Source: Rozella allomycis CSF55
Taxonomy: Eukaryota
Reading direction: 5' to 3'
Assembly: GCA_000442015.1 (NCBI GenBank)
Contig: KE561067.1
Location: 1 to 64,000, forward strand
Length of the DNA stretch: 64,000 bases
Made by a program: the position numbers and the translations under genes. Shown here piece by piece: positions 9,732 through 63,435 of the stretch. A model generated the notes under the pieces. It saw only the letters and a program-made list of their open reading frames with translations, ran no database searches and was not told the DNA's origin. Position 1 is the stretch's first letter, and each line of letters begins with the position of its first letter.

Positions 9732-11039
9732 TTAGACAAACAAAAGTGCAAAGTTAAGCATTATTATTATAGAGGCCACCAAAATCGATGTTACAGTCAA
9801 CCAAGTGGGATTCTTGTTCAATCCCATCCATTCCTTCGACGAAGTAAAATAAACCAAAGGCACAACCGCAAAGGGAAGTTGTAAACTTAAGATCACTTGA
9901 CTCCAAACTAGTAAATTTTGAACTGATGCTTCCCCCATTGATAAAACAACAATTAATGCGGGAAGTATGGCACATGACCTTGTGATCAATCTTCTTATCC
10001 AAGGCTTTATTTTCATATCGAAAAAAGATTCAACGACAATCTGACCCGCCAATGTACCTGTCACTGAAGAGCTCTGACCCGCAAATAAAAGAGCAACAGA
10101 AAAAATTATAGAGGCAGATTTCCCGAGAGAGCCCTCAAGTAATGCGGCTGCTTCCTCTAATGAGTCAACCTTTCGATCTGTAAATGATGCAGAAGCCGTA
10201 ATTAAGATGGCACAGTTGATTAAAAAAGCGAAACATAAGGCAAAAATGGTACCCATGGTCAAATGCGTTACTTTTTCTTTCAAAGAAATGAAATGATGCC
10301 TTGCATTATTCTTTGCTACCATATCTGACTGTAAATACAGGTTATGAGGCATAACAGTTGCTCCAATAATTCCAAGTGAAATAAAAAGTGGATCCTTTTC
10401 CAAAATTTTTAAACTTGGCAAAAACCCCGCGACTATTTCGCTCAATTGGGGCTTCGCCATAAACATATCCGCCAAAAGGCAGGACGAAATTAGCAAAGCT
10501 GTTAATGTCAATACAATTTCAATTGTGCTATTCCCATTTGCATCCAGCCCCATTAAAAGAATGATTACGTCTGCGGAAGTTATAATAATGCCAAGCGAAA
10601 TAGGAATACCGAAAAGAAGTTTAAGGCCTATGGCCGATCCAATGACTTCTGCAAGATCACATGCAATTATAGCCACTTCGGCCACCAAATACATTGGTAT
10701 CCAAAGCCATTTTGTTTGGATGCTCTCTCTTGTCAATTTAGCCAGACCTCTGCTTGTAAATACACCTAACCTAATGCTCAAATATTGTAACACTATAGCT
10801 AAAATGTTTGATAAAAGCACAACATGAAGCAACTTGTACTTGAATTGAGATCCGGCTGCAATATCAGTGGACCAATTTCCAGGGTCCATATATCCAATTG
10901 AGATTATAAAACCTTGCCCAATGCACCGTAATACATTAATTAAAATTCTCATTCTACTTAAATGAGTATTATCCTCAAAATTAAATTCAGAATGGTCTGC
11001 ATCTTCGGATATAAGGGGTGTACCCGACAAAGCCGGCAT
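9732..11039 (-). CDS. NRAMP/SMF divalent metal transporter, intronless
   Basis: GYMDPGNW, DLAEVIGSA, GATVMPHNLYL, GQSSSVTGTLAGQIVVE, SQVILSLQLPFA. Confidence 0.95.
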   Translation of the reverse strand: MPALSGTPLISEDADHSEFNFEDNTHLSRMRILINVLRCIGQGFIISIGYMDPGNWSTDIAAGSQFKYKLLHVVLLSNILAIVLQYLSIRLGVFTSRGLAKLTRESIQTKWLWIPMYLVAEVAIIACDLAEVIGSAIGLKLLFGIPISLGIIITSADVIILLMGLDANGNSTIEIVLTLTALLISSCLLADMFMAKPQLSEIVAGFLPSLKILEKDPLFISLGIIGATVMPHNLYLQSDMVAKNNARHHFISLKEKVTHLTMGTIFALCFAFLINCAILITASASFTDRKVDSLEEAAALLEGSLGKSASIIFSVALLFAGQSSSVTGTLAGQIVVESFFDMKIKPWIRRLITRSCAILPALIVVLSMGEASVQNLLVWSQVILSLQLPFAVVPLVYFTSSKEWMGLNKNPTWLTVTSILVASIIIMLNFALLFV

Positions 11040-11199
11040 TTGTGTAAATTTAAGAATTTTACTAATTGATGTATGCAATATTACAAAGTTTAAAATGATT
11101 TAATCTAGATTATGTGCATTCTTGTTTTTGGAATAAAATATGAATATCTTAAAAGAAAAGTCCAGCCATTTATTTGTAGGAATTTTTGTGGGAGATTCA

Positions 11200-29265: not shown

Positions 29266-30405
29266 TTACAGTTTAAGAATTTTCGATGGTCGATAAAAGA
29301 CAAAAAGAAAAATGATACCAAAAACCACAGCCAGTCTTGCAATTGAATGGGAACTTGCAAAGGGAAATAATTGTCTCAAGAATTTAAAAGAAATGTATAT
29401 TATAAGAAAAGAAACAGCAAAAATAAAAGTTGGATGTACCTTGAGTGTTTTCCTTGCCATTCTATTCGATATAGATTCATCAATGAAGAAATATTTCGGA
29501 CTTTTAACTCCATCCAATTGTTTGTGTTGGTTTTGACTGAGCATTGGACGAATTTCATCAGGTTTTGATTCAATGAGGCTACCATAGAGAATTCCTTCAT
29601 CGCATGTGTTTATTTTGGCGTTAATCATTTTTCCCAAGAAGCAACATGTTTCAGTATTGAATTGAGGGGAGACGAAGACGGTTCTGTAATTTATGTCTTT
29701 TCCTTTAAGATATTCAGATTGGATTTCTGTTATAAGAACATTTTGAATAGTTCCAATATTCTTTTCAGGGGAAAATGAATAGATAATTTCTGATCCATTT
29801 CGATCTGCAACGGTTATTGAAAGGTTTGAAATTTGATCTCTAAACCTTTGAACGAGAACAATGTGATTTCTCAAAGAGTCATTTGTAATATCGAGTGATT
29901 TATAAACTCTATGGTTTAGCAATACTTGGGTTATTTGGTAGGCATTGTTGTTTTCTAATAGAAAGGATAGAGGAATGGCCCCTAGTTTAATCCTGCAATT
30001 CATTGGAATTATTTTTGTTAAAGATTTTAAAATGGATGAAAATTGTTTTGGAAAGCAAAACTCTATTATTATTTCAACTACACCTTCTAGCATAAGCGGA
30101 CTACAATGTATNCTTCTAGCATAAGCGGAATACAATGTATTTACCGTGAAAACATGTTTTAACCTGCTCCAGCAAATCTTCGCTCGTTAAACATATGCCA
30201 AATGGAACATTTTTTACAAATTCTTTATTGCTGATTAAAGTTGAAGTCTCTAACAATCACATTTAAATCTTACTGAAATTGTAACGCTATTCAATGACGA
30301 AGTTTCAGAATTATCATTTTCTATACTGTTGAATATTTTTTTACTATTATTCCGTTCGCTTTCTTTAGTCCTATTTCGAACTTCTTCGACAAGATCCCAG
30401 GTCAT
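29266..30405 (-). CDS. Hypothetical protein with two C-terminal TMs (crosses N join at 30112)
   Basis: MTWDLVEEVR.. joins the 29266-30135 ORF via short introns; C-terminal hydrophobic helices. Confidence 0.5.
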
Positions 30406-30443
30406 TGATTTAAGAAAAATGGAAAAGTAAATGTAAATAAACA

Positions 30444-33400
30444 ATGGTTCTGTTTGGCGAACTTGACATTGTGTAAAAAGAGTATATTGTTGAGAATTAG
30501 TTACTCCACTGGTTCTATCACTAATAGTGTGCAGTCCCAGTACATTGATGAAAAGACGATGCTGGTGGCATTTGGTCATGTGCTCCATTTGTATGACACC
30601 GAAGAGAAGACAATTTTAAGCCAAATGTATGTATGTAAAGATGAAATAACTGCCTTGAGCGTCCATGCCAAAGAGGGAATTGTGGCATTCAGTACAAAAG
30701 TGGAGAGTGACGTCCATTTTCTCTCTTTACCATCACTAAAGGCGTCTCATGTCAAGAGTATAACAGGTATTTTGATTAAAGAAAACTTCATTTAGGTAAA
30801 TGTGAACGTTATTTCATGTTCATCAGGTAATGTTGATGAAAGCGTTCAAAAGGGTTGAGCGATCAAACAACAATATCCATTGACTTTCATGGTGATCGAA
30901 TGGTAGTTCTAGGCGGTGCACCCAGCTTTACTCTGAGTGTGATTGACTGGCGCCAAAACGTTATCCAATGTCAAATTTCGAATGGATCTCCGGCCAAGCA
31001 AGTCCAGTTTAATCCCATGGATAGCCATTACTTTATTACTTTTGGCTATAACCAGTTAAAGTTTTGGTGGATCAAGGAGGGCTATAGAAAGACCAGTTTG
31101 AAGAATGTAACCAAGAGCGAAAGTAGACAGCGAATGGAGATGTTGAATAGAGGAAATGAAGTTATATTCTCTAGGGTGTTGGGTAGAATGATGGATGTTG
31201 ATCCCGTGTGGAATGATAAGAATGAGGTTGTAGTGGTGTTGAATGATGGCAAGGTTATGCGTGTTGGTGTGAATTGTGAATGTGAGCAAATGGATGTCCG
31301 CCTTAATTGTGGAGTGTTAGCTGATTTTAAGTATACCATGAATGGATACGTTATGTGTTACAGAGTAACTTGATTTGATTGCAAGGATAGGATGGAACTG
31401 TTGAATTTCACAAGGAGAGAAAGGAAGCGGAAATAGAAAATGATAATTTTAGAGATTTGAATACAAAATTTGAGCACAAGATAAACCATGTAGTTTTTTC
31501 TCCGTCTCACGAGACCCTAGCAATTGTTGGAAGCAATGGAGAGTTGACAACAATAAACCGTGAAACTTTGAGCAAGGAAAAAGTAAAATAAAACTATATT
31601 ATGTGAAATAAAGCACTTGTTTAATGGAAATAAAGTGAAGAGCATGAGTTTAACGAGTGACCAAGAAATCCTGATGGTGGAAGATGATAAAAGATTGGTA
31701 GTGTTTAATGCAGAAACTAGACAGAGAAGAGGTGAGTAGTTAAAGGGGAGTATATGTAGAATTGTATAGAATCAAGGAAGAGAAAAGGGAAGTGATATGT
31801 GTGTCGCATCCGTTTTTTCGAATGATTGTTGTTGGTCATGAAAATGGGATAGAATTTCATCGGCGAATAGAAAAAGTTGAGAGTGAAGCAGAAAAAGAAG
31901 AGAGTGAGTTGAATGAAGAAACGATGATATTTGAATTCGAGTTGAAAAAGGTCAAGAGGATGAGATTTGACCCTATGGGCCGCCACCTAGTTGTTCATAG
32001 TGAGAGTGGGTTGAGTGTGTTTACGGTTGGCCTGAATGGAATAAATTTTGGCGGCTATTTGAAGAGCAAGGGGAGTATCCAAAGTTTGAGTTTCTATTTA
32101 GTGGAAGAGGAGGTAATTGAGTTTATTAAAAGGAAAAGTTTTCGTATTTGATTGTGCTATGCCACATTGGCCATGAAAGTTTAATTTTCCGGTTCATGTT
32201 TCCGATCGAGGTGATGAATTTCAAGCCTGTTGCGACGACAGAGTATTATATACCCAAGGAGGTTATACCGGTAAGTGAATATTGAGGGTATGAAAGTGTT
32301 GTTCGTACCGGGTTGATTGTGTTGTGAGTGATGTGTTTGCGATACCGAATAGTTTAACGAATGGCAAAGAAGTGATTTATTTGATTGTTGGGGAGAGCAT
32401 TAAAGGTAAGGAATGGAGTGAGAGTTGAAAGGGATGAATTTGCTGTCTAAAAAGCCAACTGATAATGCGAATGAAATACCGACGCTGATATCGAATGCGT
32501 TTAACAATTTGAATGGGCATTTGAAGAGGGCGAAATTTTACCAGAGTTTGAATAGAGAGTGGATGATAACGTTTGGGATGGATGGGAATGTTATGATCCG
32601 GGGTATTTTGGATGTAGAAAAATACCAAATGATTCAAACGAATGAAGGATTCAAGGATGGGATTGCTGAAATAATGATATCGCCAGATTTCAAGTGGCTT
32701 TGTGTTTTGGGGAATGATGGAATATTGAGGTTGATTGAGTGGAAATATACAACGAATGGCAAGAGATTGGCCATGACAGTAGCAGAAGATGTGAAACAAT
32801 TTTACTTGAATCAATTTGAGCATTTTAATAAAATAGAAAAGAATTTTTCATTAATAAAATTTGAGAAAAAGATTAAGGAAATTTCAGAAATAGATCAATC
32901 AGAGACCCTTGTTAAAAGAGAGAATTTGCGAGATAGATTGAGAGAGATTAAAGAAAAGATAAAGCAGATAATAGAGAATAATGGGAGGGTAGATGAGAGT
33001 GAGAGATTGGAGATTGAGGAGATGATAATAGATGAAGAGAAGAGGGAGCGATTGACGTTGCAGGGGATTGAGCAAGTTGATCGAATGAAGAGTGAAATTG
33101 AGAATGAAAATTTGAAGCAAGAAATAATTTTTAGAAAATTGAAATCTGAATTTTGGGATTCAATGAGAGTGAAAGGGAAATCAATTAAATCGTTTGATCT
33201 AAAAATAGATTTGAGAAATTATCCAATCTGTGAAGAAAGAGAAGAAGAAGATTTGATTAAAAAGATTATCAATCTGAGGAAATGTCAACTAGAGTTTGAA
33301 AGGGGGAAAGAGAGAGTGAAAGGTGAAGAGAGAGTGAAAGGTGAAGAGAAAGAGAAAGAGAAGGAGAGAGTGAAGGGTGAAGACAAGCAAAGTTATTTCA

Positions 33401-36262
33401 ATTCAATCTGCAACTTTATTCAAGAGGAAGATAAAGAAGTAACTAGAGAAGGTAAGGAAGTAGTTAGAGAAGGGAGAGAAGGGAGAGAGACTACTTCAAC
33501 ACATACTCCTTCTTCTACCACTACTTCTTCTAATACTTCAACTTCAACTCCTTTTACCACTTCAACCCCCTCTTACCCATCTAACCCCCCTACTACCCCC
33601 ATCAATTCGCTGCTGTTTCATCCCTTCGAGTTGAATTCAATTGAGAAACAAAAAATACAAATTTTGCTAATTAAAGAATTAATTAAAACAATAAAAATAA
33701 AATTCAATTCAAAATTTACAAATTTGTATCAAATGAAAAAAGATGAAATTTCCAAAATAGAAGAAAGAAATTCGCGAATTTTAGAAATAGTGAAAGAATT
33801 AGAGATGAAAGATTATTTAATAAAAAATTATTTTCTGGATGTTGATGAGAACCCAGAATTGTTGTTTCAAAATGATTTAAACAAAAATTCTAAAAAAGAA
33901 ACAATTTCTGAAATTTCCAAAATAGAAGAATGGAAGAAAAGGGGAATAAATTTGATGATGAATGGACGATTGGAATCATTTCAGAATACAGAAAATGAAA
34001 ATAATAAAATTCCAGAATTTATTTCTAAAAATAAATCAGAATTAACAGAAGAAGAAAAGAAGCTATTAAAAGAATATGAAAAGAAACAAAACACAATTAA
34101 AGAAGAATTAGAGAAACATAAAAAAGCATTGGAAACTGAATTGAAGAAAATTTCATCTTTTATTTCTGAAATTGCAATAAATTTTGATCTTAGATTGAAT
34201 CTATTTTTACAAGAAAAAATTTTCACAGATAATCTAATTCTATTTTTAGAACTTGAAATTTCTAAATTACAGAAATCAATTGTATTTAAAAAAGAAAAGG
34301 AAGAAAAAGAAGAAATATTAATTGAAAGGTTGAATGATTTGAAAATAGAAAAGATGAATTGTTTGAATGAGATTCCAGAGATTAAGAAAGATTTAGAGCA
34401 TTGCAGAGAAGGATATGAGAGTTGTTTGAAGAGAGAAAAGGAATTTGAAAAGCAATTTAAAAAAGAGTTTCATCAATATGAATTTTATTACGATTCACTT
34501 TTAAGATTATTCAAAAAGAGGGAATACACAAAGGTAAAGAGATTGAGTTAAAAGGTGATGTAGGTAATGTAAGAGTTAAAGTCTTATAATAGGTAATTCA
34601 ACTATAGTAGTCTTTCACTGCAGGTAATCCCCCCTTTAAGTCTCCAACTGCAGGTAATACCCCCTTCAAGTTTAACTTCTCAAACTTTAACTTCTCAAAA
34701 TAGTTATTTAAAGAATCCATTTAATTCTTTAAATGGAATTGAATCTCTTCTGCCAATTAATGAAAGTGACATCCCAGAAGGTACCTTCTAACCCTTTTAA
34801 AGACCAGGATTGAATGTAGAGATTTGGAATAAATTTCTAGATTTCAGAGAAAAAAAGATTAGATTGGAGCAAGAAGTGAAAATAGCAAATAAAAAATTTA
34901 ATGAAATGCAAAATCTAGTGAATCAAATTGTTTCAGAATCTGAAAAGATAAAAATAGAAACAGAAAAAGTTTCTGCAGATTTCATCAAATTTAAAGAAGC
35001 TTCTTTTCTCTTTTCTTTCAACGTTGAAGTTTTATGCAAACTCAAACAAGGCCAAGTTGAAGTTTCTCAAGCCCCTGTCCTAACTGACTATTCTGATGCA
35101 TGTCTCATCAACAGAAATATTGTAGAGAAATTAAATTCTCAAATTTTGCAAATTGCTTCTCAAAAAGTGGAAGCTCTAAATGAGATTAAAAATTACAGAA
35201 AAGGTAATTAGAAGGGATTTGAGGTGAGATAGGTAATCAGGGAGTTGAAAGGGTGAGATAGGTAACAGAGGGATATTTAAGGTGAGATAGGTAACAGAGA
35301 GTTGAAAGGGTGAGATAGGTAACAAAGGGATTTAGGGTGAGATAGGTACGTTAAAACTAGTAGGATAGAGATAGGTACTTCAATCTGTGGCTTATATATT
35401 AGGTACTCGGATCTGTGGCTTATATATTAGGTACTCGGATCTGTGGCTTATGAAATAGGTACTTGGATCTAAAACTATTTCATATAGGTACCTTCTAGTC
35501 TCTCCCCTTTATCTAGGTAAATACATTCAAAATCCTTAAAAAGGGATTCATTATTTGGAGTGGGAAAATAAAGTTTTGGACTTTCAACAGGAAAATTTAA
35601 TACTGAAAACAAGAGACATTCAACTGTTGAGAGTTTCTAAACAAATGCAAGATTTCATTCGCTCTGGTGACGATGGAAAACATTCAAACGAAATTTCATT
35701 AATTGAAAAAAGATTTGAACACGCAGAAAAAGTATTTTCTTTTCTTTTATTATTATAGAATCATCAACACAAGATTAATGAAAAGAAAAGATTAATTAAA
35801 TCGTTGAAATTGAAAATTAATCAAATTTCTTCTTCAAATGTTGATCTAAGCCACAAGTTGACAAATCTAGACTTGCTAGTCAAAGAGAGGCAACTAAGTG
35901 ATGGGGGAGATAGAAGTGGAGTTGAGAGGGTGGGAGATAGAAGTGGAAGTGAGAGGGTGGAAGATGATCATCGAGATAACGAGAAAGAGAAAGATGGAAT
36001 TGAGTTTAATAGGGTTGATAATGGTCATGGTGATATCTCTAATCAATCCATGGACACAAGTAATTCTCAATGTCATTCTCTAGTAGATAATCTAAAACAC
36101 GTCCAGATTTATAGCAGATTGAAAGAAAAAATTTCAGCTCAATCAGACGATCTTTTCATTCTCAAACAAGAAGTAGAAAAATTAAAGTCTAAATCTATTC
36201 CCTTGTTTGGCAGAATCAATTCTTCAAACATCAACCCCTGGTCGTCATTCGTAAAGAAATAA
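30444..36262 (+). CDS. CFAP43: Cilia- and flagella-associated protein 43 (WD40 + coiled coil), with three compound introns
   Basis: WD40 N-half (PSFTLSVIDW, VQFNP); SEFWDSMRVKG; PEGLN..W..R..KI..E; LKQGQVEV..DYSDACLINR; RKG|IHYLEWE..RDIQLLRVSK. Confidence 0.85.
30767..30852 (+). other. Compound intron: 3 tandem GT-AG units (29, 31, 26 nt)
   Basis: 30767-30795, 30796-30826, 30827-30852; only complete removal restores the frame (SITG|LSDQ). Confidence 0.8.
34534..34653 (+). other. Compound intron: 3-4 tandem GT-AG units (30, 29, 31, 30 nt)
   Basis: 34534-34563, 34564-34592, 34593-34623, 34624-34653; units 1-3 contain in-frame stops, unit 4 is in frame and could be exonic. Confidence 0.75.
35204..35543 (+). 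repeat. Compound intron: tandem array of 12 GT-AG units of 27-29 nt
   Basis: Every unit begins GTA and ends AG; removing all 340 nt gives AAA G|GG ATT CAT (RKGIHYLEWE). Confidence 0.88.
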
Positions 36263-36314
36263 ACAACCTTCTTTAATTCATTTCTTTATTTTAATTTTTA
36301 TTAATTATATGAAT

Positions 36315-37994
36315 TTATTGATTGAATTTAGTCAGATCGGTGGCATAAATAGGATAAGAAAGTGTTTCCTGAATACGCAATTCTAGAGTAGGATTTTTGG
36401 CCGGGTCAACATTAAAAAGAGGCACCGTTGCAAGTACATCCATCAACTCTAGTGAATTCCTATTTAAACCACGAAACTTGGCTAGCATTTCCTCCTTGAT
36501 CTCTCTAGGCGCATCGGCTAAATACGGATTAATTTCAGTATTCTTCAATTCTGTCGTTGACTCGATAACACTGGCTAGAATTTCTTTCAGGGAAATAATA
36601 TAGAAATTGTACTCACCCAATGTTGGATGTTCTACAGTGAGTAATGGCTTTGCATATGTTTTGGCTTTGCTTTTATATAATCTCACATAATAATCGTATG
36701 CCCTATCAAATCCTTCCACAATTTGGGTTTTTCGCTCCAATGCATGCATGCTTCCAAAAAATAAACGATCGATCGCATACTCCAACAATAGTTCTCCAGC
36801 TCGTCTAATGTTAAATGGCTTCATTTTATCGATTTTGTTTACGTAAATTTCTCTCACGGCATTGTATTCGGTCAGAGCAGCGTCAACATCCCTGGACAAT
36901 AATGTAACATTCCTTGCCGCACCTTGTATTTGATCTTTAATAAAATTAAACCTGAATACTTCTCCCTTCAACTTTTTAGTTCTTTCATTTTCAGCAAATT
37001 CTCGTTCCAGAGAATGAATCTGTTCCAAAGTTTTGGGGCCAGAAATCTCTACATCTAATGATTCAGGAGTTGAGCCTTCAATTTTAGCAAATATTTCTTG
37101 AAAATCAGTAGACAAATTTGACGAGTTCTCCAATATTATCCTCGCAGATTTCTTCAACTCTTCCCTCTCCTCACGATAACTAATTACCTCGGCCTTTAGT
37201 CTTTCATAATTCTCGGTAGCCTCAATCATAGTCTTTGTAGAAAATTTTCGTCCTCTATTGGCTACACAATTTTCATGGATTTTAGAATAAGTTTCTCGCA
37301 TAAATCTCTGCCTCGACTCTTCCAAACTGTAGCGCTTTTTTCGACCATTAATCTTTTCTGTGGCCACAGAATGTCGATAAAACATAAACTGGACTGCATT
37401 TAAAAAGTTTTCAGCTTCAGGAGCGACGGCCAATATTCCCGATTTAAACTCGTTGATCTTTTCAGCTTCTTTGGATTCATCGATTAGAATATTGTCAGCA
37501 AAAGTGAAAACAATAAATCCTCTTCCGTATCCCTCTTCGGTTATCAAGGATTTCACAAAGTTGATCAACTTGACTCGCTCAGCATCAGACAGTCTTCCTA
37601 CAGGCGACAACACAAAAAATGCATCGATTCCTTGTTTTAAAAGTACTGGGACATTATCAGATATTTGTGTGGATATTTGATCAAATTCATTCTCGTTATC
37701 AGTAAACCCAGGTGTATCGACAATATTCAAAGATCGTGTACCGTTGGTGCACAAATAATTGGCACATTCTTTTGTGCACAAACTTTCACTAGTTGAAGTC
37801 TTGGCAATTTCTTCCTCATCTCCAGAATCCAAATCACATAAATTATTCAAGACATTAACCAAAGTCGACTTTCCAGTTCCATAGTAGCCAAGCAAAAGGA
37901 GGTCCAGTGGTCTATTGCACATATCTTGAACAGGTGGTGCAACTATTACAGCGATGGAAGAGAAAACTAGAGTGAGACAAAAGAAAATTTTCAT
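36315..37994 (-). CDS. Secreted AIG1/GIMAP-like P-loop GTPase with coiled coil and C-terminal helical domain; intronless
   Basis: Signal peptide; LLLGYYGTGKSTLVNVL, SLCTKEC, IVDTPGFTD, GRLSDAE, IVFTFAD. Confidence 0.8.
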   Translation of the reverse strand: MKIFFCLTLVFSSIAVIVAPPVQDMCNRPLDLLLLGYYGTGKSTLVNVLNNLCDLDSGDEEEIAKTSTSESLCTKECANYLCTNGTRSLNIVDTPGFTDNENEFDQISTQISDNVPVLLKQGIDAFFVLSPVGRLSDAERVKLINFVKSLITEEGYGRGFIVFTFADNILIDESKEAEKINEFKSGILAVAPEAENFLNAVQFMFYRHSVATEKINGRKKRYSLEESRQRFMRETYSKIHENCVANRGRKFSTKTMIEATENYERLKAEVISYREEREELKKSARIILENSSNLSTDFQEIFAKIEGSTPESLDVEISGPKTLEQIHSLEREFAENERTKKLKGEVFRFNFIKDQIQGAARNVTLLSRDVDAALTEYNAVREIYVNKIDKMKPFNIRRAGELLLEYAIDRLFFGSMHALERKTQIVEGFDRAYDYYVRLYKSKAKTYAKPLLTVEHPTLGEYNFYIISLKEILASVIESTTELKNTEINPYLADAPREIKEEMLAKFRGLNRNSLELMDVLATVPLFNVDPAKNPTLELRIQETLSYPIYATDLTKFNQ

Positions 37995-38296
37995 CTCAAG
38001 TTCTCAACCAGGGTCAAATTTTCGTGTATTAGATCTACGGACTCTTAGAGCAATTGGGCCAAAAATTCATTTCCAAATTAAAACATTAAACAAATAAAAT
38101 AGTTTAACTATTTTAAAATGTTTAAACTTAAGGGTTTTTTTATCTCTTCGTCAGCTATGTGCACATTGCGCAGTTTTCAATACACTTAATGATGTTGGTA
38201 TTTGATTCGATTTGTTATACCAAAGAGCAGAAAAAGGCAGTTTCTCGATCAATTCCAAGTATCTTTCAACTATGTACTATCCCCTTGCCGCTTAAG

Positions 38297-38372
38297 ATAG
38301 CAGATTGAAAGAAAAAAATTCACTCAAACCGATGATTCATCAACATCAATCCATGGTCCTCATCAATCGTAA
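38297..38372 (+). pseudogene. Degraded duplicate of the CFAP43 3' tip
   Basis: ATAGCAGATTGAAAGAAAAAA..CTCAA matches 36111-36143; AACATCAATCCATGGTCCTCAT matches ~36227-36248. Confidence 0.65.
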
Positions 38373-38424
38373 ATTGTTTAATGTTTAATATTCTTTTATT
38401 TCATTGTTTTAATATTTATTTGAA

Positions 38425-39114
38425 TTAAAATGAAAAATCATAACCATCATTGCTATCGTAAGCTGCAGGTTGGTCAAACATTTCTTGAATTTCAGCTTCA
38501 AGTTTGGAATCTCTGGCTGGATCTACGTTCACAAGCGGTAAATTTAAATATTCGCGCTTTGGAGAAGCACCCATTTTATCAAATGTCTTTTCAAGTTCGT
38601 TTCTAATATCACGTGGTCCAGTTGAGACACGTGGAGACTCTGTAATATAAACTTTCCTCAAATCCTTTAATTCTCTAGCTTTTTCAAGAACATTTACACT
38701 AAATTCATCGAGCGTGCTGATATGTGAAATGTAATCTGCAAATGTTGCATTTTCTTCATTCAAAGTTGGCACAGTATATTCTTTAGCTTTGCTCTTGTAT
38801 AATTTAATGTAATAACTATATGCTTTATCAAAAAGAGATTGAACTTTAGGCACATGCTGCTTCCATGAATACGGTGTAAATATTGAATAGCTGGGTATTA
38901 CTTTAAATGACTTCATATTGTTGATCGTTTCTAAATAATTTCTTTTTACTAGATTGTAATCTGAAAGGACATTTTCACAGTCTTGTGCTTTTAAAGTAAC
39001 ATTTTTAGATATAACAAGTAATTGATCTTGAATAAAATTAAATTCTTGAACAGGTGGTGCAACTATTACAGATATGGAACAGAGAACTACAGCGAGACAA
39101 AAAGAAATTTTCAT
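38425..39114 (-). CDS. Secreted paralog of the neighbouring GTPase that lacks the GTPase domain
   Basis: Near-identical signal peptide ..VIVAPPVQ followed directly by FNFIQDQ..FDKAYSYYIKLYKSKAK..NVDPA..LE.EIQE, matching the C-terminal domain of 36315-37994. Confidence 0.8.
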   Translation of the reverse strand: MKISFCLAVVLCSISVIVAPPVQEFNFIQDQLLVISKNVTLKAQDCENVLSDYNLVKRNYLETINNMKSFKVIPSYSIFTPYSWKQHVPKVQSLFDKAYSYYIKLYKSKAKEYTVPTLNEENATFADYISHISTLDEFSVNVLEKARELKDLRKVYITESPRVSTGPRDIRNELEKTFDKMGASPKREYLNLPLVNVDPARDSKLEAEIQEMFDQPAAYDSNDGYDFSF

Positions 39115-39281
39115 CTTAACTCAGGGTAAAATTTTCTTCCAAAAAAGATATATTTCTAAACTTTTTCACAATTCGTTAAGGCCATCCACATCGTTGTCTA
39201 TTTTTTAGGTCTCGATTCTTTTAGATTTAGGTTTCGTAAATTTAGAGATTTTTATTCCATACCAGATACCATTTTGAGTGC

Positions 39282-40485: not shown

Positions 40486-41911
40486 ATGCAAGTTCAACCG
40501 TCATTGTTTATTGAACAACGATCGGCCATACAACAAGAAATAGATTCAGTTATAGATTTTAAAATTTTGAACAAATATAAGAATAGTTTGTTGGAAGAAA
40601 ACATAAATGAAGCGTTTTACAGAATAGAGGAATTGACAGCAGCTCCAATTAAAAGGAAACGAATAGAAGGAGATACTTTACAAGGGTCATTTAAATATGA
40701 CATAAATAAAAATGGAAAAGACACGAGGATAGAATGGCTATATGATCCATCAAAAACCATTCATATGACCAGGGATCAGAGGGCCTTTTTACATTTTTGT
40801 CAGGGCCAGCTATTTAACCAATTGGATGATTATCATGAATTGGCTGAAAAATTTCTCACAAAATCAGTTTTATTGAATCCAAAATGTGGATCTGTAATGA
40901 ATCTATTGTCACTCTAATAGTCATGGAATTCTCTGGGCGAGACAATGTGGAAAAAGGGTGATATTGAATGTTCATTAAAATGCTTCAAGACCGCGCTAGT
41001 GCATTGCCGAAGCAAAGAAGTTTTAAGAAATATTGCACTTGCACAAAGGTCTTTAGCTTCAAAAAATACTTTTAATAAAATAGAATTAATTGATCAAAGT
41101 ATTGATTCGGCAAAAGAGGCTTTGGCTTTGGATTTCAATGATCCATTTTCCTGGGCATCTTTGGGAACGAGCATCATGCAAAAATTCTTTTCTGTGTCTT
41201 TAAAAGATTCAGAGTTATATCAAAGCATTAAAGCTTATTCCAAGGCAGTAATTATATTGTTTTTTATTAATTTTGATTTCACTAGGAATTCAAGATGCTG
41301 ATATTTTCTATAATCGATCTATGGTAAAACAAATATGTAACGTTTACAGTTAAAACTTTACCTTGAAGAATATGATGATGCCATTAAAGACAGCGAAAAT
41401 TGCATTGCTTTGGACAAACTTCATGAAAATGCTATAAATCTTCTATCAGACTTATCACGGCATTTAGAAAGCGTCAAAAGTTGGTGCTTTAAGAAAATAC
41501 CGAAATTTAAAATTCCTTTAGAGGCTACACATTTCGGCGCCAAAGATAAATTTACAGGGGTATTTTATCAAGAATTGCAACCTCTGTGTCAACTTTGTAG
41601 GTAAATTGCATCATTCATGAATTAATGGGTATGGTTGCTCCTTGATTTATCTTGTACGTTGATCCCAGTCTTTGTATACCATTTGTCACCAACCTTTGTG
41701 GTTCAACAGGGCTCCATCGTGTCTATATCCCATCCCGTTTATAGGAAATGCTTCATCGTAAGCTAATCCCTTTATTGCTTCATAGAAAAATGAATTGGTT
41801 TTTGAAAATATTAGGGCTGATAGTGCTGACAAAAGCTGTTTATCGGTTAATGGAAAGCAAATCAACTTGAATGATTTATGCGCATTTTCATTCACAATAG
41901 AAAAGAAATAA
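40486..41911 (+). CDS. TTC5: TTC5-like TPR protein with C-terminal OB domain; model uses two GT-TG introns
   Basis: AEKFLTKSVLLNP..WNSLGETMWKKGD..AKEALALD..SW..LG; DIFYNRS; VFVYHL..G..V.I.HP; L.VNGK. Confidence 0.78.
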
Positions 41912-51108: not shown

Positions 51109-52976
51109 TTATTTTCTTCCAAATGCATCCATTCCTTTGTCCAAGAGCTTTTCAATATCCATTCGTTGATGAATCATAGAAAGCTTTGGCCATATCATTC
51201 TTTCTCCCGTTAGTATACTATATTCGAAATATTCTTTTGATGGGTTATTCATCAATCTTAAATAATCAAGAAATCTTGGTTTTGGAAACATTGTTACAGA
51301 GCCATGAAATGTTTGTAAAAAGAAGTACGACCAGTCCAGTTTAAGCCATGTTGGCAAGAGATACAATTGTCTTAACAGTTGAAGCCAGCGTCTCATATCT
51401 AACTTTAAATACAGTTCAAGAAAAGAAGCAATGAATCCTCCTTTAAAGTTAAATCCACTTGAATGCGACCCATGCCTTTCGTAAAAGAATGGAATGATCA
51501 TCGGATTTACTTGTGACACTATTGTAAATTGAGTATTGAATAGTTGAGATAATTTTTCTGTCGGTACATCGATTTTGAAAGTCCCATCTCTCCATTTGTG
51601 TACTCCAATAGAATCAAAATGGGTTACAAAGTTGGGGCTGCTTTCCGAAAACTTTCTGATGCGCTCATTTTTCAAGGGATGTTCATAGCCTATTTCACAA
51701 GGCTTTAATTCATCATTTGGTATCTTTTTATACAATTTGACGCTACGAAACATGAATGGGATTGCAATTGACGCTAAAACCGCGCTGTGAATGACTACAT
51801 CAGGCGTCGTTAGATAATTAAGAATTTGTGGTGGTTTTTGATGATCCTCATGAATGACAGATATATTTAAAATTCTTCCAGTCTTTTTATATGCCTCAAT
51901 AAAGGTTAAATCACCAAGAGTACATTTTCGTAAAACCGATACAGCGTAATCAGTATCAACCATAGCTCCACTCCTTAAAAACCTGAGCAAACGACTGGAC
52001 ATACTATCTAACGGCGACATTAACTTTAAGTGCTGCTCTTTATCATTGTATAGTTCAAGCAACTGTTCATCGGTTCGCGTACAAACAATGGCTGCCATGA
52101 TTGCCCCAGAGCCTATTATTTTATTTACATTATTTCGGTACTTGTTCCAGAAATAATGCGCGGCAAAATACCCTGGTCGAGCATGGTCTTTATTACACCT
52201 TAATTAATGATAACAATTACATATACCTACCTATATGAAAAAGGCCAAACATGGCACCCCCAGAAAGGCATAGAGCAGTCCTTCCATAAATCTTGGACGC
52301 TTTCCGGAAGAAATCCTTTTTCTCTTCGGAAGGTATCATATCTGTTTGAATTATCCACTGCAGACCGCTACACACTTTTAAAAAAAGGTATGAAAATTAC
52401 CCTCGCCAGTAAATTGTTCAATTATAGTTTTAGTGCCAATGTATGACTGATTGTAGAGTCTTTCATGCATAATACCACCCAAGTTGCATCGAACGCCGCT
52501 CTCTAGTAATAACTTGATCATTCTTTGAGCCTTTTCTTTAAAGTTTTGGTTACTCAGTCTAGTACCCCTCAAGTTATCCGTAATCTATAGAAATACAAAT
52601 TTGCACCAATTACCTCCTTTATCAAGTTATAGTCAAAGTATGGTGATCTGGGATCTTTTCTCCATTTATCTTTATGTGTTGCTTTGTCAGCACCCTTTGC
52701 GCAATGTGTGTATTCGTTTAAGTCTTTGGCTGTTTTCATTCCTTGTTGCCACCGTCTTAAATTTCGATTTCGTACGTGCCCATTAAAATATTCATATGCT
52801 CTAACAATTTGTCGAAGGATTGTATAGGCAATAAGGTCAATTACTAAGGCAGTTAAGGTGATTAAAAGAAGGGGATAGCGTAGTAATTTAAACGTCTTGC
52901 TGTTTGGAAGAGATGAATCATAGTCTTTTAGAATCTTTATACCTTCAACTGGCGTATTTGAATCTGAGGAAACCAT
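51109..52976 (-). CDS. Patatin-like triacylglycerol lipase (TGL3/4/5, SDP1-like), 4 short introns
   Basis: YGRTALCLSGGAMFG, ISGTSSGAI (GxSxG), LTFIEAYKKTGRILNI, LNYLTTPDVVI, WRDGT, IVSQVNP. Confidence 0.92.
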
Positions 52977-56807: not shown

Positions 56808-57085
56808 CTGATTAAGTCAATAAATATTTTTTGAATTCTAAAAGGCATTTTAATGACATATTCATCGATATACTTAAAGGGTAATATCAGTGAGATTGAT
56901 CCCCTAATCCCTTCACCTTGGCACTTGATTTCGGCATTAAATATCCATTTAACTATTGGACAATGCAAGAAGTTTTCACCACTACATCGACTTATTATCT
57001 ATTAATATAATCCTTGCATTTGAGAACATATTCTTATAAATAGCAATTGATCACTATTTCTAAAAATAGATTTAAGTGCTTCATN

Positions 57086-58054
57086 ATGTCGATTTTTTCT
57101 TTTCTTTTCGCAGTTATATTTAGCTTTTGCTCAGGTACGATGAGCCCTTCCGATGCCAATAAACTTTTGGCTTTGACAAATCAACACCGCGCATCTCTCG
57201 GGCTTAACGCCCTGCAGCTAGATTCCAAATTAACAGCTGCCGCTGAAGGACATTCCAATGCTCAAGCCCAAGCTAAAACTATGGGACATTTTGGTTTTGA
57301 GAATAGGATGGCTACCTGTGGCTTTCCAGGATCCGATTGGGCTGAAAACGTGGGAATGACACAAAGACGCCCAATCGATGTCGCTTTCATGCACCAAATG
57401 TGGTTAGATTCACCAGGACATCGGCGAAATATTGAAAAGGTTGGTCTCACACATGTAGGATTTGGGTTAGCAGCCAATCCCGATGGGGATTATTTGTTCT
57501 ACACAGAATTCTTTTCTGCAATATCTTCAGGATCAAAGTACAAGGGTACGCAACCTCAAGTTCAACAACCGTCAAGTTATCAAGGATCTCCATCAAATGG
57601 CCATCGTTCATTATACGACACTTCTACTGGCGCAGGCGCACCTACAACGAAGAAAGGATGTAAGAACTCAATCAAATCAGGAGCAGGTATTCCTCAAATT
57701 CCAAATGCTTCAACTCAAAATACGTCAACTCCAAATACTTCAACTCCAAATACGTCAACGCCAAATACATCAACACAAAATACGGGAACACAATCCCCTG
57801 ATGGAAATTCAGGAGATCAACATTCTGCGCCTTCTTTGGAGTCATTGATTAAAGACACTCTTGGCGATCTTATGAATGGAGATTATTCAAATTCGCAAAC
57901 CCAAGATTCAAGCGATCCAAACGCACATCAAACCCAATACTCCAAAAAGACATACAAGATTAATAATTCCGGTCAAGGAGGCCCTAATGTTACTGTGTAC
58001 CAGTTCTTTATTATATCAAATGGTGGTAAAGACTCGGGAGAGGTGAAAAAGTAA
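57086..58054 (+). CDS. Secreted CAP (SCP/YkwD-type) protein with low-complexity tail
   Basis: LTNQHRASLGL..LDSKLTAAAEGHS..MGH..AENVG..WLDSPGHRRNI..VGFG; NTSTP repeats. Confidence 0.9.
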   Translation: MSIFSFLFAVIFSFCSGTMSPSDANKLLALTNQHRASLGLNALQLDSKLTAAAEGHSNAQAQAKTMGHFGFENRMATCGFPGSDWAENVGMTQRRPIDVAFMHQMWLDSPGHRRNIEKVGLTHVGFGLAANPDGDYLFYTEFFSAISSGSKYKGTQPQVQQPSSYQGSPSNGHRSLYDTSTGAGAPTTKKGCKNSIKSGAGIPQIPNASTQNTSTPNTSTPNTSTPNTSTQNTGTQSPDGNSGDQHSAPSLESLIKDTLGDLMNGDYSNSQTQDSSDPNAHQTQYSKKTYKINNSGQGGPNVTVYQFFIISNGGKDSGEVKK

Positions 58055-58156
58055 CAGTCAGTTCAATCAATAAAAAATAATTTTTGATCTTATAAAATTG
58101 ATTTTTTATAATCATTTCTTTGATTCTCCATAGTTTTGAGCGGGAACAAAGCCACA

Positions 58157-61100
58157 ATGGTAAAGGTACTCAATGTAGCTGAAAAACCTTCTATGGCGAA
58201 AGCCATAGCAGATCATTTATCAAACCATCAATTTAGCACTGTATACTATAAGATAATAATATTTGTAGAGAAAAGGCGTAGACAAGTATTGCAACAATTT
58301 TGATTTTATTGTGTACCAGCAAAGAAACCAGATGCAGTGTGAGATGACAATGACGAGTGTTCTTGGACATGTAATGGAATATGCGTTTCCAGACGAGACG
58401 AAGAGTTGGACAGGCTATCCAGTTGAAAATATGTTTTCCATACCGATAGTGAAAAAAGTTCATCCAGTAGAGGCATGATAGATTAATAATAGGACAAGGA
58501 GAGAATAAAGGTTAATTTGGAGAGGGAGAGTCGAAAAGCAGAGTGGCTAATTATTTGGACTGATTGTGACAGAGAAGGCGAGAATATTGGGATGGAAATT
58601 TCAGAAATATGCAGACGGGCGAATCCAAGACTATTAGTGTATAGAGCCAGATTTTCTGTTGTCAATGGAAGGTTTGAATGATTTTGTTTGAAGAGTAGGG
58701 AGTTGAAGAATTCATTTGAGAATCTGTCGCAGATAGATGTGAATATGAGTATGGCGGTTGATACGAGACAAGAGCTTGATTTAAGGATTGGGGCTGCCTT
58801 TACGCGCCTTCAAACGATAAATTTACAAAGCAAATTTAAGAGTTTAGAAAAGACTGTGATATCGTATGGCCCATGCCAATTTCCAACGCTTGGATTTATT
58901 GTTGATCAGTATAGAAAAAATAAAGATTTTGTTTCTGAATGTTTTTGGAGTTTGACGGCAACGTTGGAAAAGGAAAATAAGAATTGCGTTTGTTCATGGG
59001 CCAGGGGAAGCATATTTGATGAAAGAGTTGTTGAACTTTATAAAACGATTTGCCAAAGAAGCCCGATAGCCAGAATAATGAAAGTGGATGAAAAGGCTAC
59101 AAAGAAATAGTAATAGAGATGATTGAATGAAATAGTCGACCCTTGCCATTGACAACTGTTGAATTTCAAAAGTTTGGCACGCGATATTTAAAGATGAGTT
59201 CGCACAAACTGATGAATGTAAGTTGATTCTATTTTATTGAAAGATTGCAGAGAAATTGTATAACAGGGGTATAATTAGTTATCCTAGAACAGAAACAGAT
59301 GTATTTGAGAATGGAATTGATTTGAAGGGGTTGATTCAAAAACATTGCGATAACGAAATTTGGGGAAATTATTGCCAGGGTTTAATGCAGGGGTCATTTA
59401 TGTTCCCAAGAAAAGGAAAACACAACGACAAGGCGCATCCCCCAATCCATCCAACGATGAATGTAAATAATTTGGAAGGAGAAGAATTTAAAGTTTATGA
59501 ATTTATAACGAGAAGGTAAAATAGAATAATTGAATGGGAAAGATTTTTAGCTTGTTGCTCAAAGGATGCGTTAGGCGTTGAAACAAAAGTTGAAATAAAA
59601 ATTGCTGATGAAACGTTTGCATGTTCGGGGCTTTTGATTACGGAAAGAAATTATTTAGAAATTTACATTTATGATAAATGGAATGAAAATAGTTTACCAA
59701 AATTAATTGTTGGTGAAGAAATCAAAGCAAAAATTTCAAAAACGAATGGAAAGACTACTGCGCCACCATTGTTAACTGAAGGCGATTTGATTGGATTGAT
59801 GGACAAGAATGGGATTGGCACTGATGCAACAATTCATGATCACATTAAGAAAATTCAAGATAGAAATTATGCGAAAAAGACTTCAAAGGGTTTCATTCCA
59901 ACGCCACTTGGTCTTTCTCTAGTTGAAGGCTACGACGCTTACAATTTTGATCATTCTTTAACAAAGCCCCAATTAAGAGCTTTAATGGAATCTGAAATGA
60001 ACAATGTTTGTCAAGGTTTAAAATCTAAAAATCAAGTTTTAGAACAGGGAATCAATTTATACTTTAATTTATTCATTAAAACTAAAAATTCTATCAATTT
60101 GTTATTGCAGGTAAAATGTTATGACTTTCTAAAAATAGGTATGGCTTAGTGTTAATCTATTTTTAGAAAGTTTCAGAAAATTTGAATCAAGAAATTTCAG
60201 AAGATGACCACGTTGAGATAAATCGACATTCAAATTATGTTCAACCGTCAAACAATTCAAATTCAAATTATGTTCAACCGTCAAACTCAAATTCAAGTTC
60301 AAGTTATGTTCAACCGTCAAATTCTTTTTCTTCAAACACATCAAATACTTTTTCTTCAAACTCTTCTAACTCNGTTCAACCGTCAAACAATTCAACTTCC
60401 AACTCATCAAACTCCTTTAACCCTTCAAACACATCAAACTCATATAACCCTTCAAATCCATCGCTGGAACAAAATACAAATTCCCCTCCTTGTAGCTGCG
60501 GTTTAAATTCATTTCTCTTCACAGTCAAAAAACAAGGCCCCAATCTTGGCAAAAAATTCTATTCTTGCTCAAAACCTCAAAATGAAAAATGCGATTTTTT
60601 TCAGTGGCTTGATCCTCCAATAGATCAGTCTGCGCCACAAAGATCTGTAGATGATTTTGGCTCTTCAATATCTTGTAACTGCAATAAAATAGTCCAATTA
60701 AAAACTGTCCAGAAATCTGGCCCAAATTATGGGAAAAAGTTTTATTCTTGTTCTACTTGCGATTTCTTTCTGTGGAGTCTCAACGACTCTTCCCACAGTC
60801 AATCCATTCAAGAGGCAATCAAATGCGATTGTGGGTTGGAATCTGTTTCTTTCACGTGTCAAAAGCCTCCAAATAATGGAAGAAAATTTTTTAAATGTCC
60901 AAAACAAAGTGGAATGAAATGTTCGTTTTTTCAATGGGCTGATGAACATTCAACTACAAGGGTTGATCATAGTACAAGAGTTAATTACAATTCAAGAGAT
61001 AGCAGCAATACATGGGATAACGCTAATACATGGGATAACAACAATTCAAGGGTTAATCAATATAATTCAAGGTCTAATCATAATTCTTCTAATACAAATT

Positions 61101-61229
61101 CATATAATTCAAATGCAAACGTTGATTGCTTTCTTTGCAAACGAGTAATCTTTTCGTATTTCATTTAATCTTTAGAAGGGACACTTTGCTAATAATTGTC
61201 CATCAAAGAAGAGAAGGCAAAATCATTAA
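58157..61229 (+). CDS. TOP3: DNA topoisomerase III alpha with three GRF zinc fingers and a CCHC knuckle
   Basis: VLNVAEKPS, MTSVLGH, WTDCDREGENIG, SYGPCQFPTLG, ISYPRTET, AHPPIHP, GIGTDAT; C.CG..GPN.GKKFY.C..C.FFQW. Confidence 0.95.
60111..60166 (+). other. Compound intron: 2 tandem 28-nt GT-AG units
   Basis: 60111-60138 and 60139-60166; only removal of both reaches the open frame AAA GTT TCA. Confidence 0.75.
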
Positions 61230-61399
61230 TTTATCATATAAACACATTTAAAACTCATTATATAATTAAATTCTATTGTTAAGGTATAAGACGCTATAAC
61301 ACTTCAATGGGATCTCGATCTCTTCAGCCTATATATATCACCGATGTCTATAAATAACTATCTCGATATATTTAGACGAACGAGAAGTCCCTGTTACAT

Positions 61400-61960
61400 A
61401 TGTATCGTTGTATCTTTCTTTTGTTTTCTGCATTCGTATTTGACTATTGCTCAGCTACTATGAGCTCTGCCGACGCAAATAAGCTCTTGGCTTTGACAAA
61501 TCAGCATCGTGCTTCCATCGGTTTAAATGCATTGCAATTAGATGGCAAATTAACCGCTGCCGCAGAAGGACATTCCATTGCTCAAGCTCAAACAAAAACT
61601 ATGAGCCATAATGGGCTTGACAGTCGAATAGCAAACTGCGGGTTTCCAGGAATCGTTTGGGCTGAAAATGTTGGCATGTCAGAAAACAAGCCAATAAATG
61701 TCGCTGAAATGCATAAAGGCTGGTTGAATTCACCGAAACATCGAGCAAATATTGAAAAGGCGGGTCTCACTCATGTAGGATTCGGTTTGGCTGCCAATGG
61801 AAATTTTTTGTACTATACTGAATTTTTTGGTGGAGTCGCGTCGGGTTCTAAATACAGTGGCACAAAACCACAAGGTCGACCATCAAACAGTCAAAGATCT
61901 TCTTCGACTGGTCGCCGCTCATTGTCCGATCAGTTAGCAATCAACAGGTTCAAACGTTGA
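61400..61960 (+). CDS. Secreted CAP protein, short paralog
   Basis: Signal peptide plus CAP domain nearly identical to 62362-63435. Confidence 0.9.
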   Translation: MYRCIFLLFSAFVFDYCSATMSSADANKLLALTNQHRASIGLNALQLDGKLTAAAEGHSIAQAQTKTMSHNGLDSRIANCGFPGIVWAENVGMSENKPINVAEMHKGWLNSPKHRANIEKAGLTHVGFGLAANGNFLYYTEFFGGVASGSKYSGTKPQGRPSNSQRSSSTGRRSLSDQLAINRFKR

Positions 61961-62361
61961 TCACTGTATCTGGATGGGTTATTTCTCTCCATCAAAGAAG
62001 AGATGTAATATATAATAAACCCTTTTAAATGTCAATCAATAGTTAAAAGTTGTAATAACCGCGGTTTCGTTTATTTTCGTAAAAAATGATATATTGCGTC
62101 CAACGTGTCATGAAATATGCTCTGAACTCTATATAATTTTGGATCCAGCCTGGGTTTAGGGAGTTCATTGAGTGATGAATCTTCCAGTTCGAGATTGTCA
62201 TGTATGATGTTCTTGGGACCACTTTGATAAATGTAGCAGCCAAATAAAATGTAGCCTGCTTCAATTGATCTAAACATTCTGCCAATTGAATACATTTTTA
62301 TCATCTTTGTCTATAAATAGCATCGTACGTTATATCCATGCAGGAGAAGTCCCTGTTTCAT

Positions 62362-63435
62362 ATGTATCGTTGTATATTTCTTTTTTGTGTATTTGTATTT
62401 AAATATTGCTCAGCTACTATGAGCTCTGCCGACGCTAATAAACTCTTGGCTTTGACAAATCAACATCGCGCGTCAATAGGCTTAAATGCGCTGCAGCTGG
62501 ATAGCAAATTAACCGCTGCTGCAGAAGGACATTCAGTTACTCAAGCTCAAACAAAAACTATGAGCCACAATGGGTTTGACAATCGAGTCGCAACGTGTGG
62601 GTTTCCAGGAAAAGTATGGGCTGAAAACGTGGGTATGACAGAAAATAAGCCGATAAATGTCGCTGAAATGCATCAAGGCTGGCTGAATTCACCGAAGCAT
62701 CGCGAAAATATTGAAAAGGTGGGCCTCACTCATGTGGGATTTGGTTTGGCTGCCAACGGAAATTTATTGTATTATACACAATTTTTTGGTGGAACTTCAT
62801 CAGGGTCGAACTACAGTGGAGCAAAACCACAAAGTCAGCAACCATCAAGTTATCAAGGATCTCCTTCAAATGGTCATCGTGCCCTGTCTGATAATTTCGC
62901 AGGCAATAATGGCGGGTCTGCGGCTAATAATTCGCCCGCATTTAATAGTGAACCTACTGGCAATAACATGCCGACTAATAGTGGCGATAACATACCAATG
63001 AAGGGTATCAGACCTAAGCAATCAAAGTCGCGTGGAAGTGGCATTCCTCAAGTCCAAAATCAAAATGTACCGAATAGTTCGGAGGAAAATGTTCCATCTT
63101 TTCAAGGAAATTCAAGTGGAAATCAAGCTATGCCTTCTATGCCTTCTATGGATGCCTTTTTCGGAAACATATTTGGTGGACTTATGAACGGACAACAGCC
63201 AAATTCTCAAACTCAGTATTCCAGTGATCCAAACGCTCACCAAACCCAATATTCAAGCGATCCAAACACCAAACAAACCCAATCAAAAGGAAATGGTTCA
63301 CCGACATCCGGTTCTCAACCATTTAATTTACCAGGACCAAACAACTTACAATCTAATTGCGCCAAGGGTGCACCTTCCAATGGANTAAACTTTAACTCTT
63401 TTAGAGAAAATATTTTATTTCAGTTTTTTGACTAG
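62362..63435 (+). CDS. Secreted CAP protein with long N/S/Q/P-rich tail (3' end broken by N at 63385)
   Basis: CAP domain; tail shares QQPSSYQGSPSNGHR and SSDPNAHQTQYS with the 57086 paralog. Confidence 0.88.
   Translation: MYRCIFLFCVFVFKYCSATMSSADANKLLALTNQHRASIGLNALQLDSKLTAAAEGHSVTQAQTKTMSHNGFDNRVATCGFPGKVWAENVGMTENKPINVAEMHQGWLNSPKHRENIEKVGLTHVGFGLAANGNLLYYTQFFGGTSSGSNYSGAKPQSQQPSSYQGSPSNGHRALSDNFAGNNGGSAANNSPAFNSEPTGNNMPTNSGDNIPMKGIRPKQSKSRGSGIPQVQNQNVPNSSEENVPSFQGNSSGNQAMPSMPSMDAFFGNIFGGLMNGQQPNSQTQYSSDPNAHQTQYSSDPNTKQTQSKGNGSPTSGSQPFNLPGPNNLQSNCAKGAPSNGXNFNSFRENILFQFFD

Follow-up and report, generated by a model that had tools for sequence, protein, structure and literature searches.

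Introns can be gained when a segment containing AGGT is duplicated in tandem, whereby duplicated exon sequence becomes one new intron. Removal of introns in pieces is described as well: recursive splicing at zero-nucleotide exons is known in Drosophila (10.1101/006163), and in Cryptococcus neoformans the 375-nucleotide (nt) intron of BOT1 is reported to be recursively spliced as 210 + 165 nt (10.1101/224170). Stwintrons, described from filamentous fungi and Lipomyces, comprise several U2-type units excised in consecutive reactions, some of them spread by duplication; by the definition given in these accounts, an internal intron splits the donor, branch or acceptor element of an external one, thereby forcing the order of excision (PMC9024468, PMC7138796, PMC8469720). 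Microsporidia are reported to have introns that are very short, plus a rare class of roughly three times that length, at around 76 nt; the same paper places this lineage next to Rozella (PMC6349667). The subject here is an 86-nt interruption in the gene for a homologue of CFAP43 (cilia- and flagella-associated protein 43) of the fungal parasite Rozella allomycis CSF55, located in a 64,000-nt stretch of DNA (positions 1 to 64,000 of the forward strand of contig KE561067.1, assembly GCA_000442015.1) that is referred to as the window. The interruption divides without remainder into three intron-like units, and the reading preferred—with fair though far from complete confidence—is stepwise removal of mini-introns whose junctions are under purifying selection.

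A three-unit stack in the CFAP43 gene

The interruption opens with GT at 30767 and closes with AG at 30852 on the forward strand, and its 86 nt split exactly into three GTA..AG units of 29, 31 and 26 nt (Table 1). Each unit fits the GT-AG consensus of the host (starts GTAT, GTAA, and GTAA; ends TAG, CAG, and AAG), and each length falls within the intron size class of the window. Two AG/GTAA junctions (the slash marks the unit boundary) lie inside the interruption and exon 2 ends in ..CAG, such that exon/GTAA would be re-formed after the first excision. The coordinates, end motifs, and both AGGTAA junctions had been put forward in an original prediction made from the DNA letters alone, and all are confirmed; the stack is real at the DNA level, and stepwise use of its sites is a proposal.

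All eight combinations of keeping or removing units 1–3 were translated. Whenever any unit is kept (seven of seven combinations), a stop follows 9–20 codons past the junction, which bears out and extends the earlier statement that retained units lead to stops, and the frame is open only with all 86 nt out. In alignments with CFAP43 of Hydra, Ara, and Tetrahymena, the protein is contiguous over this site, with no extra residues once the 86 nt are removed, and also over the 340-nt site of a further stack in the same gene; a closer relative (P0126; 39% identity) likewise crosses the 86-nt site without added residues. A middle unit acting as a micro-exon, which the original prediction had already dismissed, is ruled out by these homologues and by the frameshift that results from keeping unit 2 alone, with a stop after 20 codons.

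That the pattern arose by chance is extremely improbable, as is the view that the region is something other than an intron, be it micro-exon, pseudogene, or assembly artefact. GTA..AG pairs of 26–31 nt are common, 65 of them lying inside open reading frames (ORFs) of at least 250 codons, but the number of valid three-unit decompositions expected of a random 86-mer is only 1e-6 to 1e-4, varying with the composition, length range, and motif assumed. When the whole window was shuffled with dinucleotides preserved, just 1 of 200 shuffles yielded any chain of at least three units of 26–31 nt, and 7 of 200 did so when units of 24–34 nt were allowed. The stops on all partial retentions also argue against such an explanation, as do the intact 1675-codon frame, the conserved CFAP43 domains, and the gap-free homologue alignment at the junction.

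Table 1. Positions of the stacks, their parts, and other features in the window
Feature	Positions	Strand	Description
CFAP43 homologue gene	30444-36262	+	13 exons, 12 interruptions, 1675 codons plus stop; single open frame when spliced
Intron 1	30473-30500	+	single 28-nt GTAA..TAG unit; restores frame from ATG at 30444
Exon 2	30501-30766	+	ends ..CAG, one base of split codon (phase 1)
Unit 1	30767-30795	+	29 nt, GTAT..TTAG; motif score at 19th percentile of 64 real introns
Junction 1/2, AG/GTAA	30794-30799	+	unit 1 acceptor abuts unit 2 donor; zero-length exon
Unit 2	30796-30826	+	31 nt, GTAA..TCAG; motif score at 19th percentile of 64 real introns
Junction 2/3, AG/GTAA	30825-30830	+	in loop of weak hairpin
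Unit 3	30827-30852	+	26 nt, GTAA..AAAG; motif score at 25th percentile of 64 real introns
Exon 3	30853-31364	+	part of WD40 propeller; starts GG, completing split codon
Hairpin	30802-30848		on the forward strand, 3' part of unit 2 pairs with unit 3; unit 3 donor in loop
Hairpin stem	30819-30825 / 30834-30840		7-nt perfect inverted repeat
Second stack	34534-34653	+	units of 30, 29, 31, and 30 nt (120 nt); taking out three (90 nt) or four (120 nt) units keeps frame
Third stack	35204-35543	+	12 head-to-tail units of 27-29 nt, 340 nt
Candidate single intron	41248-41285	+	38 nt, GTAA..TAG; TPR-like gene
Candidate two-unit stack	52199-52257	-	patatin-like lipase gene; 27 + 32 or 31 + 28 nt; single-intron reading also in frame, ambiguous
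Candidate two-unit stack	60111-60166	+	28 + 28 nt, between topoisomerase III core and GRF zinc-finger exon; ambiguous
Single-intron alternative at topoisomerase III site	60139-60170		32 nt; keeps frame too
NRAMP metal transporter gene	9735-11099	-	intronless
Pair of neighbouring genes	36315-39120	-	similar N-terminal signal-like segment and similar C-terminal region
CAP/SCP-like genes	57044-63435	+	three paralogous secreted-protein genes flanking the topoisomerase III gene

Intron size and splice signals in the window

The intron survey covers this one 64-kb window and rests on gene models built for the present analysis, which are not exhaustive. The standard code applies in the window, G+C is about 35%, and gene density is high. 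A parse restricted to GT..AG units of 20–36 nt, single or chained, with counts taken from gene paths scoring at least 40, assigned 69 of 83 inferred units to 26–31 nt (25 units of 26 nt, 17 of 27, 9 of 28, 10 of 29, 3 of 30, and 5 of 31); the off-size units that were inspected mostly have a canonical alternative alongside. A scan without a size prior, in which the shortest GT..AG joining two ORFs of at least 45 codons was taken and which is noisy and serves for the length histogram only, peaks at 26–29 nt (24, 13, 13, and 14 cases) against roughly 1–6 at each other length. The junctions of the 86-nt stack, described originally as standing at ruler spacing, do match this size class. Its total length is long against the window mode of 26–27 nt, and is shorter by far than the cases of recursive splicing with which it was compared, as these are described in the literature.

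The interruptions exceeding 40 nt that were found (86, 120, and 340 nt, together with ambiguous ones of 56 and 59 nt) are all divisible into units of 26–32 nt, and with these non-exhaustive models no undecomposable interruption above 40 nt was seen in the window. Dynamic-programming parses permitting long introns chained across genes and were discarded. The genome is very compact: between neighbouring gene paths on the same strand, with scores of 30 or more, there are nine gaps of less than 260 nt (6–229 nt), which look intergenic or, for one of them, include an N.

Splice signals are confined largely to the intron ends. GTA begins 63 of 64 introns (A at position 3), position 4 holds A in 47 of 64, and position -3 holds A or T in 56 of 64. 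No branch motif at a fixed position was found in the introns of the window; TTGA(A) is enriched in their interiors (21 of 64 versus 7.5 expected) at varying positions, and may be connected with the branch site. A TGA at positions 5–10, common to the three units of the 86-nt stack, was considered as a signal and rejected as not general, being present in 9 of 64 real introns versus 216 of 1541 GTA sites overall.

Further stacks in the same gene

Chains of at least three GTA..AG units of 26–31 nt occur three times in the window, all within CFAP43, and each of the three sits exactly where the frame must be restored. The 12-unit array is the most striking stack in the window; once its 340 nt are taken out, the protein matches a conserved motif of the CFAP43 homologues perfectly and runs contiguously with those of Hydra, Ara, and Tetrahymena. 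Elsewhere, two candidate two-unit stacks were found, both ambiguous (Table 1).

Similarity between units was expressed as a pairwise alignment score of their interiors and compared with a background of 2016 pairs of unrelated introns (mean -3.1; 99th percentile 5). The units of the 86-nt stack score -6, 0, and -3 against one another, values equalled or exceeded by 85%, 22%, and 55% of the background pairs, respectively, and no direct repeat was found in this stack by TRF or a repeat search; the view that its units share no obvious similarity is therefore upheld. Two short motifs do stand at similar positions in the three units and are matched by 1018–1308 of 20000 random intron triples (p about 0.05–0.065), these shared positional k-mers being a faint trace of similarity. 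When these three units are compared with the 64 other introns and the stack units of this window, their best scores are 3–7, within background. An introner-like mobile intron family was rejected as a source, there being no dispersed similar copies of the three units within the window.

Minisatellite-like similarity of neighbouring units is thus absent from the 86-nt stack, whereas it is present in the 12-unit stack and partial in the 4-unit stack. The 12-unit stack contains two near-identical families (units 1–5 score 6–19 mutually and units 7–9 score 11–17), with units 6, 11, and 12 unlike the rest, and TRF recovers periods of 29 (4.4 copies), 57 (2.4 copies, 88% matches), and 28 nt (3.5 copies, 90%). 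Units 3 and 4 of the 4-unit stack are similar to each other (score 5, reached by 1.4% of background pairs), and unit 4 resembles the first 20–30 nt of the next exon (score 9, reached by none of the 2016 pairs), which itself begins with GTAAT. Since removal of either three or four units is in frame here, the intron/exon border at 34534-34700 may be in flux. Judged by these sequences, the 12- and 4-unit stacks are probably young examples, and the 86-nt stack is probably an old or independent one.

The borders of the stacks offer a route by which they could have arisen. An upstream exon ending in AG together with a downstream exon starting with G is found at all three CFAP43 stacks, compared with 5 of 65 ordinary introns; taken singly, the upstream AG occurs at 11 of 65 and the downstream G at 18 of 65. 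AG/G at both borders would constitute microhomology that lets slippage duplicate exactly one intron, and a stack would be born by replication slippage or unequal exchange between the AG/G of the upstream exon and that of the intron end.

Whether the stacks serve a purpose is a separate matter. An adaptive regulatory stack—in which internal sites delay or gate expression, for example through stop-containing partial RNAs that are degraded in stages without flagellum building—is considered very improbable, even though every partial product has an early stop and the three clear stacks share a flagellar gene whose expression is probably limited to certain stages. Where units are near-identical, as in the young stacks, the appearance is that of ordinary minisatellite growth, and a repeat-prone gene, with tandem repeats in its coding parts too (TRF), explains the clustering without function. 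The original prediction held that stacking is functional, which goes further than the evidence: nothing points to a purpose, and a slippage product that was tolerated and later locked in by purifying selection fits equally well.

Proposed constraint on the junctions and stepwise removal

The anatomy, the size class, the non-random stacking, the unlike units, and the requirement of frame and homology are direct observations. What we infer from them is stepwise removal, an origin by slippage, and selection. The 86 nt would be a head-to-tail concatemer of three complete spliceosomal mini-introns with zero-length exons between them. Intron definition in Rozella would require little beyond GTA(A), (A/T)AG, and a length near 26–31 nt, and the nearest donor–acceptor pair at ruler spacing would be paired like that of any other intron; with signals so sparse and each unit matching them, the stack would be removed in steps. 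Three successive excisions would each recreate a canonical exon/GTAA or AG/exon, so that any order, and any pairing of a unit start with a unit end, would yield the same mRNA. The most natural order would be 5' to 3' during transcription, which amounts to recursive splicing at a zero-nucleotide exon. Loss of an internal junction would leave an intron of 55–86 nt, outside the size class, leading to retention and a premature stop; purifying selection would then preserve the junctions as the interiors diverge. The internal sites themselves probably work as splice sites.

Decay of the junctions was simulated for a triplicated intron accumulating substitutions only. Units as dissimilar as those observed, combined with two intact, unselected AGGTA junctions, have a joint probability that peaks at about 1.2e-3, compared with 0.13–0.68 for the dissimilarity alone with no demand on the junctions. 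Given triplication and a substitution-only model, constrained junctions are thereby favoured about a hundredfold. Counting the three stacks together, dissimilar units meet at about eight internal junctions, every one of them intact, and the window showed no decayed stack two or three units long. The earlier proposal that selection, rather than recent repeat expansion, accounts for the internal sites is favoured by the simulation, which assumes a duplication origin and concerns one locus.

The chief competitor is a single 86-nt intron removed in one reaction from 30767 to 30852, with the internal AG/GTAA being unused relics of an old triplication or of two insertions beside an existing intron. 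This is judged unlikely. It would give the same final product, and the DNA alone is thus compatible with it, but the spliceosome would have to pass over an acceptor and two donors of consensus sequence at canonical spacing, and unused junctions should have decayed along with the interiors, for which the simulation leaves the small joint probability given above. The lack of undecomposable interruptions above 40 nt among the window's gene models also speaks against one-step removal.

A number of observations nevertheless weigh against stepwise removal or a strict size ruler. As microsporidia are described (PMC6349667), a 76-nt intron of roughly triple the miniature size is removed whole with an efficiency of about 80%, which exceeds that of the miniature introns; with such introns efficient in one step, length by itself would not have to prevent the 86 nt from being excised as a unit. 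A weak hairpin across junction 2/3 could reduce the effective intron length, looping out about 46 nt and leaving near 40 nt; its fold (z = -1.9) is equalled by 11 of 200 shuffles and is not significant by itself, the inverted repeat being just 7 nt. Motif scoring separates real introns weakly from decoys, i.e., the 65 chance pairs inside long ORFs (means 1.2 versus -2.8, standard deviation about 2.5–3), and the three units rank low, at the 19th–25th percentile of real introns and the 71st–83rd of decoys; the motif score fails to distinguish them from chance GTA..AG pairs. The 38-nt candidate intron in a TPR-like gene is too short for two units and is the longest single intron candidate in the window, beyond the usual 26–31-nt class, which suggests that the length ruler is not absolute. 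Lastly, all three clear stacks are confined to one repeat-rich gene, and this points to a local mutational process.

A broader proposal is more tentative than stepwise removal itself, and is put forward as a possibility rather than as the expected outcome. The Rozella spliceosome may possess a tight ruler of about 26–31 nt, under which longer intervening sequences would exist only as polymers of mini-introns, grown and shrunk by slippage at AG/G microhomology, removed by obligatory recursive splicing at zero-length exons, and frozen by selection on the junctions.

The CFAP43 gene and its annotation

The Pfam domain CC_Cfap43 was found on two exons of the gene (5e-63 and 1.2e-24), and its best named matches are CFAP43 in Hydra, Ara (parrot), and Tetrahymena. 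Nine of the interruptions are single introns (28, 26, 31, 28, 26, 26, 26, 27, and 27 nt) and three are compound (86, 120, and 340 nt). At the 5' end, a 56-nt first intron lacking an internal junction was dropped in favour of the ATG at 30444 followed by the canonical 28-nt intron, and the N terminus of the resulting model resembles a homologue (P0128). No Rfam family was found within 29500-37000 of the window, and metagenome scans with exon 3, or with an alignment of exon 3 and P0126, found no DNA of a relative.

Two named public Rozella models (P0125 and P0147), RKP20328.1 (653 amino acids) and RKP20330.1 (690 amino acids), match the region 30855-34400 on the forward strand. Each starts at a methionine a short way past the 86-nt stack, leaves out exons, and ends early; the structure of the stacks therefore seems to defeat current public gene annotation. 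The two models share one 13-kb contig of another assembly and are 98% identical to exon 3, with about 2% of residues differing from the window, such that a second allele or copy may exist. Annotation of Rozella and of similar genomes may be systematically truncated wherever stacks occur.

Neighbouring genes

Three further observations concern other genes of the window (Table 1). The NRAMP metal transporter is 100% identical to an NCBI protein of Rozella allomycis CSF55, while the other listed matches are about 46–51% identical, the named ones being bacterial or JGI metagenome records; on this sequence comparison, horizontal acquisition of the gene is possible. The three CAP/SCP-like genes have signal-peptide-like starts and low-complexity tails rich in Ser, Asn, and Gln. 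Of the gene pair on the reverse strand, the longer member carries an AIG1-type GTPase domain (Pfam 2.6e-11).

Relation to known systems

Should the internal sites be used, the stacks would represent recursive splicing in its smallest form, in which minimal introns follow one another with nothing between, the 12-unit array included. It would then become testable whether genomes with tiny introns limit intron length above as well as below, a long-standing question. Simple slippage of repeats would, moreover, be seen to alter intron number and length, and one gene would display both young and old stages of the process. If the tentative ruler were to hold too, mini-intron polymers would be a previously undescribed route of intron-length evolution and the shortest recursive-splicing substrates known. 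In the literature searched, which lay outside the original genome paper and its supplements, nothing was found on Rozella intron size or on concatenated mini-introns, and the word 'intron' is absent from the Paramicrosporidium genome paper.

The likeness to recursive splicing, as the ratchet points of Drosophila and vertebrates and the BOT1 intron are described, is that an acceptor AG abuts a donor GT inside the interruption and that excision recreates a 5' splice site. The known cases, on the same accounts, concern long introns, from hundreds of nt to many kb in size, which are divided into pieces that are still long, in genomes that splice long introns anyway. The Rozella stacks differ in having minimal pieces of 26–31 nt, with 86 nt in total here and up to 12 pieces in 340 nt nearby; stepwise removal, reported for the known cases, is for the stacks a prediction. 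Microsporidian long introns, compared by description only, are single introns with extended branch-point motifs that are spliced better than the short ones (PMC6349667).

With stwintrons, as reported, the stack shares the character of a complex intervening sequence made of several units. Identity with them was rejected: the units abut end to end, each with its own intact GTA start and AG end, and any order of removal works. The resemblance to intron gain by tandem duplication lies in the repeated units of the 12- and 4-unit stacks and in the likeness of unit 4 to the following exon. Unlike the classical process, the apparent repeat unit is a whole mini-intron, which forms arrays, and the 86-nt stack has kept its junctions while losing the repeat signal. 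Stwintrons are thus no match, and of the systems known, zero-nucleotide recursive splicing and intron gain by tandem duplication come closest.

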